Shown here: positions 61,971 through 64,000 of the stretch, one piece after another
Layout: every line of letters starts with the position of its first letter
How positions within the stretch are numbered: position 1 is the stretch's first letter
Source of the DNA: Candidatus Latescibacterota bacterium
GTDB taxonomy: Bacteria > Latescibacterota > UBA2968 > GCA-2709665
Length of the DNA stretch: 64,000 bases
Reading direction: 5' to 3'
Assembly (NCBI GenBank): GCA_965208835.1
Contig: OZ242358.1
Location: 992,001-1,056,000, forward strand
Position numbers and translations under genes: made by a program
The notes under the pieces: generated by a model
Databases searched by the model: none
The model's input: only the letters and a program-made list of their open reading frames with translations
Told to the model about the DNA's origin: nothing

Positions 61971-62000
61971 TTGACAAAAGGGTCCGTTCGTTTATATTCT
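61971..62000 (+). promoter_or_regulatory. Putative sigma70 promoter of lnt-tatC
   Basis: TTGACA followed after 16 or 18 nt by TATATT or TATTCT. Confidence 0.55.
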
Positions 62001-62142: not shown

Positions 62143-64000
62143 ATGACCGAGGCGCGACAGGGCACGGACTGGAGATGGATGGTGTTGTTTCCGGCGGTCT
62201 CGGGCCTTGTCCTTGGCGCGGCATTTCCACCCCTGCCGTTTGGTTTTCTGTCTTACGTCGCGCTGATTCCGCTTCTGCTTTCGGCGGAACGGCTGCGCGG
62301 CAGGGCGGCTTTTAGCGCCGGGTTCGTCCAGGGGATATTTTTCTACGGTACGACACTCTATTGGATCGGATCGATCACGCCGCCCGGCATGGCCGGGGCG
62401 GCGATTTACATGTCCCTGTTCCGCGGTCTGTTCCTGTGGACGTTCGCCCGCGCAGTCAGGCGGTACGGTATTGCGGGGATGTGGAGCGCGCCCTTCCTGT
62501 GGGTCGCGTTCGAGTATTTCAACTCACTGGGAGACATGGGTTTTCCCTGGGTGGTTCTGGGAAACTCGCAGACGGCCTATCTGTGGCTGATCCAGTACGC
62601 GGAAGTGACGGGCGTGTACGGGGTGTCGTTCTGGATTGTGCTTGTCAATCTGAGCATAATGATGCTCTGGAGGAACCGGTCGCGCCGACGGGTGTGGGCA
62701 GCCGCGTTGGCCGTGCTTTTCGCGGGACCGGCGGCGAACGGGTATCTGGCGCTGAAGGACGATCCGGACGAACAGGCCGTGGCGGTGGGCCTGGTCCAGC
62801 CGGATATGCCGCCGGTGGCCAAGGAATACCGGGGATTCGACTACAATTTCGGCAAACTGAAGCCGATGACCGCGGAGGCGGCAGGGCAGGGTGCGAAGCT
62901 TGTAGTGTGGCCGGAAACGGCGGTCGGCTATCTGAAAGGGGAACTGTACCGGCACCATCGCGAGCGGGTGCAGGCGATGGTGGACTCGCTCGGGATTTAC
63001 TTGTACACGGGCGCATACAGACTGGAAGCTGGCGACCCGGTGAAGGTGTTCAACTCGTCTTTTCTGTTCGTGCCCGAAAAAGGGATCTCCGGATACTACG
63101 ACAAGACCCGCCTGGTGCCGTTCGGCGAACGGGCGCCGTTCCCGGAGATACTTCCTTTCTTGCGAAAGATCCGGTTCACCGGCGGCGGATTCGTGGGGGG
63201 CAACTGGGATTCCGGTGAGACCCGTACCGTCTTCGACGGCCCCGACGTCCGATTCTCCGCGTTGATCTGTTACGATTCGGTCTTTCCGGGATTCGCAAGG
63301 TCATTTGTGGACCTGGGCGCTGAATTCCTGGTGATCATCACCAACGATGGCTGGTTCGGCCGGACCTCCGGACCCTATCAGCATGCCGAGGCCGCGGTGT
63401 TTCGCGCCATCGAGAACCGGCGTGACGTGGTACGCTGCGCGAACACGGGCGTTTCCACGTTCATCGACGCCTATGGACGGAAATCGGGCACGACGGGAAT
63501 CTTCCATCCGGCGGTATTGACGCAGGGGGTGACTCCGCGAACCGCGAAGACGTTCTATACGAAGCACGGAGACCTGTTCGCGCAACTCTGCATGGTACTG
63601 GGCGCGATTCTGGTTTTGATGGCCTTCCGAGGCTACGCTGTGGATGCAGAGCATTCCATTCTGCCCCCCGGCACAGACACGCCTTCCGAGAGCGCGCCTG
63701 TACCGGCTCCGGCGGCCGACGACAGACCGATGCCTTTTCTGGACCATCTGGAGGAACTCCGCTGGCGTCTGCTGAAGGGGCTGGCGGCCCTGGTTGTCGG
63801 CGCCGTGATCTGCGGGATTTTTGGCGACACGATTCTGGGATGGCTGGTGTTGCCGGTCAGGGAAGCGACCCCGGTCATGAAGCTGTTGGGCGTGGCGCCG
63901 GTTGAGCCGCCGGTCAAGCTGATATATTTGAAACCGATGGGGATGTTTCTCGTTAAACTTCAGATTGCCCTTGTCGGCGGCGCGGTGCTGGCGCTGCCGG
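62143..64000 (+). CDS. lnt: Apolipoprotein N-acyltransferase fused in frame to TatC (runs off the window end)
   Basis: GGAGG RBS and ATG 62143. Manual frame-1 translation gives GFPW, GVYGVSF, VVWPETA, YDKTRLVPFGE, LICYD, TNDGWFG and RCANTGVS with no stop through 64000. Absent from the ORF track because no stop lies in the window. Confidence 0.9.
   Translation, partial: MTEARQGTDWRWMVLFPAVSGLVLGAAFPPLPFGFLSYVALIPLLLSAERLRGRAAFSAGFVQGIFFYGTTLYWIGSITPPGMAGAAIYMSLFRGLFLWTFARAVRRYGIAGMWSAPFLWVAFEYFNSLGDMGFPWVVLGNSQTAYLWLIQYAEVTGVYGVSFWIVLVNLSIMMLWRNRSRRRVWAAALAVLFAGPAANGYLALKDDPDEQAVAVGLVQPDMPPVAKEYRGFDYNFGKLKPMTAEAAGQGAKLVVWPETAVGYLKGELYRHHRERVQAMVDSLGIYLYTGAYRLEAGDPVKVFNSSFLFVPEKGISGYYDKTRLVPFGERAPFPEILPFLRKIRFTGGGFVGGNWDSGETRTVFDGPDVRFSALICYDSVFPGFARSFVDLGAEFLVIITNDGWFGRTSGPYQHAEAAVFRAIENRRDVVRCANTGVSTFIDAYGRKSGTTGIFHPAVLTQGVTPRTAKTFYTKHGDLFAQLCMVLGAILVLMAFRGYAVDAEHSILPPGTDTPSESAPVPAPAADDRPMPFLDHLEELRWRLLKGLAALVVGAVICGIFGDTILGWLVLPVREATPVMKLLGVAPVEPPVKLIYLKPMGMFLVKLQIALVGGAVLALP
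63730..64000 (+). CDS. tatC: TatC domain (N-terminal part) of the Lnt-TatC frame
   Basis: MPFLDHLEELRWRLL, then TM1, then P.G.F.VKL.IAL..G..LALP, the TatC N-terminal signature. Confidence 0.88.
   Translation, partial: MPFLDHLEELRWRLLKGLAALVVGAVICGIFGDTILGWLVLPVREATPVMKLLGVAPVEPPVKLIYLKPMGMFLVKLQIALVGGAVLALP

Follow-up and report, generated by a model that had tools for sequence, protein, structure and literature searches.

The question raised by this locus is whether the lipoprotein N-acyltransferase Lnt and TatC, the receptor subunit of twin-arginine translocation (Tat), are encoded here by one gene and, if so, how the join arose and what it does. The DNA analysed, referred to throughout as the window, is a stretch of 64,000 nucleotides (nt) from a Candidatus Latescibacterota bacterium (assembly GCA_965208835.1, contig OZ242358.1, positions 992,001 to 1,056,000 of the forward strand), at the right-hand end of which the lnt-tatC gene begins. 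The gene is real and consists of a single bifunctional frame with a complete Lnt, a linker and a complete TatC. The reading that we favour, with a probability of roughly 0.6, is that of a tethered bifunctional protein derived from an adjacent gene pair, in which both halves would keep their usual activities and gain co-expression and co-location, with no obligatory channelling between them.

The frame starts at ATG 62143 on the forward strand, runs uninterrupted and is still open at the window end (64000). The source genome (G000) is a single contig (C1) of 5,180,620 bases with 59.5% G+C and 97.8% completeness; read on this contig, the frame extends to a TGA at window-equivalent 64462-64464 and yields a product of 773 residues, with the 5 kb before and the 8 kb after the gene free of N. 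Domain searches over the full length matched LNT_N, CN_hydrolase and TatC, and the product is divided as follows.

62143..63633, forward strand: Lnt module, residues 1-497, delimited by Pfam, alignment to E. coli Lnt, and AlphaFold2 (AF2) modelling with Foldseek; LNT_N membrane domain at 20-170, CN_hydrolase domain at 216-446, last transmembrane helix at 478-495
62914-62916, 63103-63105 and 63268-63270, forward strand: codons of the Lnt catalytic triad, E258, K321 and C376, respectively
63634..63729, forward strand: cytoplasmic linker, residues 498-529 (about 32 residues), predicted to be disordered, rich in Pro, Ala and acidic residues
63730..64000 and on to the stop at 64462-64464 (G000:C1:1055730-1056464), forward strand: TatC module, residues 530-773

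The Lnt half is complete and looks active. LNT_N (PF20154) is matched by residues 20-170 over positions 1-158 of its 159-position profile (113.2 bits against a cut-off of 27.1; E 1.7e-32), and CN_hydrolase (PF00795) by residues 216-446 (99.4 bits against a cut-off of 23.2; E 2.8e-28). Residues 21-498 align to residues 24-510 (of 516) of the E. coli Lnt structure 5XHQ (E 8.9e-34), which brings WPET, YDKTRLVPFGE and LICYD into register with WPES, YNKNHLVPFGE and AICYE of the E. coli enzyme. The triad E258/K321/C376, which corresponds to E267/K335/C387 in E. coli, does not vary in any of 61 aligned fused homologues (41-97% identity to the fusion protein). When the AF2 model was compared with solved Lnt chains by Foldseek, E values ranged from 5.9e-24 to 3.1e-21 and template modelling (TM) scores on the target from 0.77 to 0.84. 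The profile matches and the alignment to 5XHQ bear out what a preliminary description had read from the letters of the window, namely an uninterrupted frame from ATG 62143 with a complete Lnt that has its catalytic Glu, Lys and Cys and its last transmembrane helix.

The TatC half likewise appears complete and active. Its in-window part gives a Pfam TatC match that begins at residue 534 (E 2.9e-14), while the full gene matches positions 1-208 of the 208-position TatC profile (PF00902; 229.3 bits against a cut-off of 25.1; E 9.4e-68). The sequence MPFLDHLEELRW at residue 530, where the preliminary description had placed the TatC N-terminus, is aligned with the first residue of the Aquifex TatC chain in crystal structure 4B4A; residues 530-772 as a whole align to residues 1-231 of that chain (E 1e-38), and the module starts exactly at the first Met of the crystallised protein. 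Foldseek returned TM-scores of 0.90 (4B4A) and 0.88 (4HTS) for the AF2 model against Aquifex TatC, with the same six-helix, glove-like fold. Six residues (M530, F532, L533, H535, L536 and E637) do not vary among the 61 fused homologues, conservation of E537 and E538 is 90% or higher, and the HLEELR and TTERR motifs align with HLRELR and SHEKR of Aquifex TatC. The conserved cytoplasmic Glu residues of the twin-arginine binding site, E15 and E103 in E. coli TatC, have their counterparts in these motifs.

The AF2 model, built on the 61-homologue alignment, has a mean predicted local distance difference test score (pLDDT) of 82.2 and a predicted TM-score of 0.66. Residues 498-525 fall below a pLDDT of 50, and the linker of about 30 Pro, Ala and acidic residues proposed earlier is recovered at residues 498-529. 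In the 114 fused homologues of at least 700 residues the linker measures 18-98 residues, takes 42 distinct lengths and is always in frame; its pooled composition is 16% P, 14% E, 14% A and 13% D. The whole protein has 14 predicted membrane helices, eight in Lnt, which also carries the periplasmic acyltransferase domain, and six in TatC. In the solved structures Lnt and TatC each have both ends in the cytoplasm, and the join therefore carries no topological cost, since the Lnt C-terminus and the TatC N-terminus face the same compartment. The topology had been judged sound from the start, and the basic residues that directly follow the last Lnt helix in homologues (FRG, FRR, RFRKPRP, WWRSRRP) fit a linker that begins in the cytoplasm. 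Stop codons in the linkers of 20 fused loci number zero in the reading frame, five (in four loci) in the +1 frame and 20 (in 10 loci) in the +2 frame, a control of modest weight, because the linkers are short and anchoring succeeded in only 20 of 28 fused loci, of which many come from a single genus.

Since the window stems from a metagenome-type assembly and a C6 homopolymer lies inside the linker, one might suspect a fault of assembly or sequencing, or else a recent read-through of the pseudogene kind in a single genome. Public contigs cross the junction intact: a 26,112-base contig (X1), possibly from the source sample itself, spans 63300-64000 with 0 differences, a 641-base contig from another study (X5) is gap-free over 63318-63958 and differs by 14 substitutions, and two 130-base contigs (X7) extend over 63636-63765, likewise without gaps. 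Across the junction none of four public runs is listed with an insertion or deletion, and within the C6 run (63664-63669) the public contigs differ only by a C>T substitution. Together with a frame common to 53 of 53 related species genomes and to the 114 database proteins of at least 700 residues, and with the invariance of the key residues of both halves, these gap-free contigs refute the suspicion, to which we give practically no credence. The fusion is also the sole lnt and the sole tatC in the 5.18-Mb genome: profile searches found a single match each for TatC, LNT_N and the TatA/B family, with no stand-alone copy of either half. The single TatA_B_E gene lies at C1:2954543; lgt and lspA are single genes, and tatA, lgt and lspA are each 1.9-3.7 Mb from the fusion.

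A search with the whole protein covered 40 relatives from one order (two families and nine genera). Every one of them matched at 55-97% identity without an internal stop, 38 of them in a single full-length match; the exceptions are one genome in which the match is split over two contigs and one in which the 5' end of lnt lies in two frames. In the latter (G029:C1:5245440-5247709) the first ~95 Lnt residues are in another frame, which may reflect a frameshift or a fault of assembly near the start of the gene, away from the junction. A survey of the phylum covered 168 species genomes, scored by the open-frame length around the TatC match and the Lnt match.

Families f1 and f2 (the window's order; 53 genomes including G000): tatC in frame with lnt in 53 of 53, in frames of 764-841 residues, two of them cut by contig ends
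Family f3: lnt and tatC adjacent, separate
Family f4 (76 genomes): mixed, with at least 31 fused, in frames of 801-983 residues
Ten families of other classes: lnt frames of about 500-650 residues and tatC frames of about 250-430 residues, mostly far apart or on different contigs

The architecture is thus common to the whole sampled order, and separate lnt and tatC genes are not the rule among the close relatives. Across the phylum the fusion is present in at least 84 of the 168 species genomes, and it is retained in every sampled genome of the three fused clades introduced below. One further frame was rejected: at G042:C452:3700-5900 (L187) a 653-residue frame surrounds tatC, and the 418 codons before the conserved MPFL motif are Arg/Gly-rich nonsense, probably an upstream frame open by chance in G+C-rich DNA.

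A protein search (425-1353 residues, with residues 500-773 scored) returned 325 hits, and among the 120 hits listed nearly all carry PF20154, PF00795 and PF00902 together; the architecture is implicitly recorded already in precomputed Pfam lists. Where they are named at all, the fused proteins are called only 'apolipoprotein N-acyltransferase' or 'hypothetical protein'. Full-length fused matches are mostly labelled as 'Candidatus Latescibacterota' metagenome-assembled genomes, and some bear the older labels Gemmatimonadetes, Gemmatimonadaceae or Handelsmanbacteria. Such labels conflict, as the 'Gemmatimonadaceae' record of P0119 matches a Latescibacterota-labelled chromosome at 96% identity. 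In an exhaustive search with the TatC half against 1.84 billion representative proteins, the Lnt-TatC layout occurs in two of the best 150 matches (P0024 and P0108), both from this clade, and none of the 18 longest other proteins among those 150 has an Lnt domain.

For the history of the locus, 99 loci with a full Lnt domain were classified by hidden Markov models of the two halves, after five partial-Lnt loci had been dropped.

Fused: 44 of 99
Adjacent, in another frame: 17 of 99
Same frame, one stop: 7 of 99
tatC 1.7 kb away: 1 of 99
tatC absent from the flanks (up to 4 kb): 30 of 99

Among loci L086-L117, which lie outside the clade and include three of the dropped partial-Lnt loci, tatC was found within the flanks (up to 4 kb) in 0 of 32; their labels include Gemmatimonadales, Fibrobacterota, Eisenbacteria, Fermentibacteria, Chitinispirillales and Deltaproteobacteria. 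A FastTree phylogeny of these 99 Lnt domains took as its root the 29 loci that bear labels of other phyla, among which the program flags long branches; it united the 70 linked loci in one clade (support 98) and sorted the fused loci into three clades with support of 100 each. The first comprises the window's order (21 rows) and is sister to two unfused f3 loci, the second (3 rows) is sister to two loci with adjacent genes in different frames, and the third (20 rows) has four same-frame, one-stop loci as its nearest neighbours. The minimum number of changes between the fused and unfused states is three, whereas shuffled labels required 32.7 on average and were never as low in 500 shuffles; an IQ-TREE tree of 44 representative rows also gives three, and the approximately unbiased test rejects a tree uniting all 17 fused rows (difference in log-likelihood 334, p 8.6e-6). 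When the tree is rooted on the outgroup, three gains from an adjacent ancestor take far fewer steps than one gain followed by at least eight losses, and no reversal to the unfused state was seen in any fused clade. As these trees read, one class of the phylum inherited lnt and tatC as neighbours from its ancestor, and the fusion arose three separate times.

The unfused relatives suggest how. Their lnt stop codon (mostly TGA) lies 40-220 nt ahead of the conserved MPFL. In L035 and L078 (TGATATG), L037/L061, L068 and L083 an ATG stands at or just past the lnt stop, in frame with MPFL and 16-73 codons upstream of it, an arrangement that points to coupled translation and to a free TatC with a short acidic tail at its N-terminus. 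The same-frame, one-stop loci of family f4 are L037/L061, L038, L042/L065, L054 and L083, and their stop is 15-38 codons before MPFL; it is TGA in L037/L061, L042, L065 and L083 and TAG in L038 (genome G120). All of these loci are one mutation from the fused state, and four of them, L037/L061, L038 and L054, are the nearest relatives of the largest fused clade of f4.

Long acidic tails are also found on free TatCs elsewhere. Two of these, P0101 and P0102 (431 and 428 residues), align over the whole tail with one in-frame gap of six residues and with conserved blocks, and in the global search tails of 150-440 residues that lack a Pfam domain and are net acidic (D+E 9-38%, K+R 2-11%) are carried by many of the TatC clusters nearest to this one. 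Tail-bearing free TatCs are P0101, P0102, P0128, P0136, P0142, P0165, P0177, P0197, P0210, P0215, P0216, P0235, P0241 and P0255; an FPEDERS...DDHS motif recurs in four tail-bearing proteins, and 13 of the 14 keep a Met, often after K/R-P, right before the HLxELR helix. Most simply, the fused linker would be the old acidic tail of TatC, in which case fusion needs only one lost stop or a one-base shift. In the course of events proposed here, a stop would have been lost between neighbouring, co-oriented and probably translationally coupled lnt and tatC genes, and the disordered acidic N-terminal tail that TatC had before in this bacterial class would have become the linker.

One frame may nevertheless deliver two proteins. 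If the genes were fused at the DNA level only, TatC would also or mainly be made separately, through a start at ATG 63730 or through cleavage of the linker, and free Lnt and TatC would result. The conservation of residue 530 invites this view: every one of the 114 fused proteins has Met there, the 34 loci examined all encode it by ATG, and yet the six residues before it (524-529) differ freely from protein to protein. Moreover, in unfused relatives whose single in-frame stop lies 15-38 codons upstream, translation of TatC has to begin close to that site, and the modelled linker appears disordered and exposed. The same Met is, however, internal in 13 of the 14 long-tailed free TatCs, whose tails are conserved at the protein level, so that its conservation needs no initiation. 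Signals for expression were found as follows.

61971..61998, forward strand: promoter-like site TTGACA-16-TATATT, 11 of 12 matches in a consensus scan, about 145 nt before the start codon
62128..62133, forward strand: Shine-Dalgarno-like GGAGGA, by sequence inspection, 9 nt ahead of ATG 62143

The promoter-like site, near-consensus and of sigma-70 type, is a consensus match only and sits in the 275-nt divergent intergenic region between an aminotransferase-family gene and the fusion gene; the scan of the region gave four sites against 0.6 expected from shuffles. It placed no promoter-like site ahead of the internal ATG 63730. Direct reading confirmed that the linker contains no stop and that no Shine-Dalgarno core precedes this ATG, and such a core is lacking there in G000 and in its genus, which counts against a separate start. 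The latter is weak evidence, because 62% of genuine starts lack a core: it is present at 377 of 981 unambiguous gene starts of the genome (38%) versus 602 of 4846 internal ATGs (12%). A search for Shine-Dalgarno motifs before the internal ATG in 34 loci found none that was consistent, whether fused or unfused, and does not discriminate.

The frame also persists. Through many changes in linker length, each of the 53 genomes of the order has kept lnt and tatC in a single frame, and the linker, although it changes fast and is rich in codons one step from a stop, is stop-free in each of them. If a separate start supplied enough TatC, linker stops and frameshifts should be tolerated, as they are in family f4. 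A fusion at the gene level only is therefore regarded as unlikely. The protein is probably translated and kept as one chain, and in the window's order we think that TatC is mainly made as part of the fusion.

What the join does is a separate matter. The preliminary description had inferred that the Tat export of folded lipoproteins is physically coupled to their N-acylation; its fusion proved genuine, complete, topologically sound and order-wide, and the coupling is possible, though the unlinked lgt and lspA and the few Tat lipoproteins of the genome speak against it as an obligatory step. On the coupling view the tether would keep Lnt close to the Tat receptor, where folded, cofactor-bearing lipoproteins with signal peptides bound to TatC would undergo maturation and N-acylation as they leave through Tat. 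A variant of this view makes the membrane domain of Lnt a structural partner of TatC in a translocase with one TatA-type subunit. In either form, with the Tat receptor and the last lipoprotein-maturation enzyme as one machine, or with the Lnt domain in place of a missing TatB-like scaffold, we hold it to be improbable, though worth keeping in view. On this view the acidic tail beside the twin-arginine binding site, which free TatCs of related lineages also bear, might itself help to capture or gate the basic signal peptides.

Five sequences of the genome score above the cut-off of the curated Tat-signal profile TIGR01409 (ten reach E values of 10 or lower), and seven are credible on reading. 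The three best run straight into lipoboxes (ERRDFLKK...LAGC, NRRKFLK...LAGC and TRREFLR...AAGC), which favours coupling, and one of them belongs to a classic cofactor enzyme, Oxidored_molyb. The predicted Tat lipoproteins are listed below.

G000:C1:19313-20431: DctP-type TRAP solute-binding protein, with twin-arginine motif and lipobox
G000:C1:4912985-4914040: molybdopterin oxidoreductase (Oxidored_molyb), also over the Pfam TAT_signal cut-off
G000:C1:3705900-3708953: heparinase II/III-like protein of 1018 residues, with twin-arginine motif and lipobox

By pattern search about 250 open reading frames have a generic lipoprotein signal and only three to seven of these a twin-arginine signal. The pattern of RR plus lipobox is crude, and many of its 15 hits (against two for the KK and four for the RK/KR controls) are clearly noise; three are convincing and two to four more are possible. 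With so few twin-arginine lipoproteins, Lnt must mostly serve non-Tat lipoproteins, which speaks against a dedicated hand-over, as does the fact that Lnt acts third in lipoprotein maturation, after Lgt and Lsp, in the account of PMC8048626, and that Lgt and LspA, required earlier, are encoded far away.

A survey of 15 other genomes, with up to five over-cut-off Tat signals each and 63 in all, counted lipoboxes that follow such signals.

Fused genomes: 10 of 23 (13 of 28 including G000)
Adjacent-unfused genomes: 5 of 19
Unlinked-gene genomes: 2 of 21 (3 if an atypical WTGC is counted)

This gradient runs in the direction expected from coupling, yet the groups compared are clades in which the same few orthologues recur, so that it is not independent evidence. 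Coupling would also accord with the presence of only one TatA/B-family gene, with a linkage kept across a class and fused three times, and with the binding of Lnt to its fused or neighbouring partner in mycobacteria, as reported in PMC3460810. It accords less well with a disordered linker that varies freely between 18 and 98 residues, unlike a fixed interface, and with sister lineages that keep the genes adjacent but unfused. As a side observation, one genome of family f10 (G051) has 98 TIGR01409 matches at E up to 0.3, versus 3-9 in each of 14 other genomes, a large expansion of Tat use in one lineage; TatC open frames in that family measure 406-430 residues, and G051 itself has 179 open codons before MPFL.

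The tethered fusion without channelling remains our preferred reading. Each half most likely keeps its usual job: Lnt would add the third acyl chain to all lipoproteins, TatC and the single unlinked TatA would receive twin-arginine signal peptides, and the covalent link would mainly ensure equal synthesis and co-location, with no obligatory hand-over of substrates. Both activities are probably retained, as the intact motifs of the two halves suggest, and obligatory channelling between Lnt and TatC is not to be expected.

Several points weigh against this reading. TatC works as an oligomer with TatA/B, yet here it carries an eight-helix domain on its N-terminus. The lipobox gradient, three independent fusions and the absent reversal hint together at more than neutral convenience. 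An invariant Met at residue 530, next to freely varying positions, fits an internal start that is still used, and the 24 public runs returned for the stretch include no RNA run. With respect to origin, the parsimony count cannot strictly separate three gains from one gain and many losses, and the group submitted to the approximately unbiased test was defined with a tree already in view.

The genes on either side show no obvious tie to envelope biogenesis: upstream, on the opposite strand, lies the class I/II aminotransferase-family gene, and downstream are genes for a member of the Na/Ca exchanger family and for a GDP-mannose dehydratase-like protein. The most likely meaning of the join is the stable co-expression and co-location of two housekeeping envelope proteins, and a functional hand-over for Tat lipoproteins is possible as a live minority reading. 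A link that evolved three times and was retained is a 'Rosetta stone' hint that the halves may work side by side, at least where many Tat substrates are lipoproteins; if it reflects mere co-expression, it would still be a well-documented case of repeated fusion of translationally coupled neighbours. The protein suggests that TatC can function with a large N-terminal membrane domain, which bears on models of TatC assembly. In addition, annotation pipelines would report as lacking tatC those genomes, which come from uncultured marine and sponge bacteria, whose fused protein is labelled only as an 'apolipoprotein N-acyltransferase'.

A search of full-text literature, with subscription journals and InterPro outside its scope, found no description of an Lnt-TatC fusion, in keeping with the earlier impression that it is undescribed, and the literature searched describes no link between the Tat translocase and lipoprotein modification enzymes. 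With stand-alone Lnt (E. coli 5N6H, 5XHQ and 8AQ4; P. aeruginosa 5N6M) the fusion shares both Pfam domains, the Glu-Lys-Cys contexts and the fold, and it differs in that the Lnt C-terminus runs on into the linker and TatC. With stand-alone TatC (Aquifex 4B4A and 4HTS; E. coli TatBC 9DZZ and 9E01) it shares a full-length match from residue 1, the fold and the conserved Glu residues of the HLxELR and ERR motifs; unlike stand-alone TatC, its N-terminus is not free and bears about 530 extra residues that include eight membrane helices. The TatC N-terminal region participates in signal-peptide binding according to PMC6098224. The free cytoplasmic N-terminus is absent in the fusion, but it is no strict criterion of the TatC family, because many related free TatCs also carry long N-terminal tails.

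Other TatC fusions in the databases join TatA_B_E to TatC (P0202, 506 residues), TatC to the quinolinate synthase NadA (P0135, 674 residues) and TatC to LptD_2 (P0244, 804 residues), or have a CarboxypepD_reg domain inserted inside TatC (P0201, 496 residues); the tandem TatC-TatC of haloarchaea is an additional precedent. None of the database fusions involves Lnt, and they show that covalent partners, typically genomic neighbours, are tolerated at either end of TatC. The closest parallel on the Lnt side is Lnt-Ppm1, for which PMC3460810 describes lnt (ppm2) upstream of ppm1 in one operon of M. smegmatis, with proteins that interact in a two-hybrid assay, a single bi-domain protein (Rv2051c) in M. 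tuberculosis and, likewise, a separate ppm2(lnt)-ppm1 operon in C. glutamicum. In both cases Lnt is N-terminal, a downstream neighbour is joined at its cytoplasmic C-terminus and relatives have the genes adjacent and separate. The partner in Lnt-Ppm1 is a soluble cytoplasmic glycosyltransferase anchored by Lnt, whereas here it is a six-helix membrane protein of an export machine, joined in the cytoplasm by a long disordered linker that has no evident processing site. The Lnt-TatC fusion is thus a new domain architecture of two known families and not a new kind of system.

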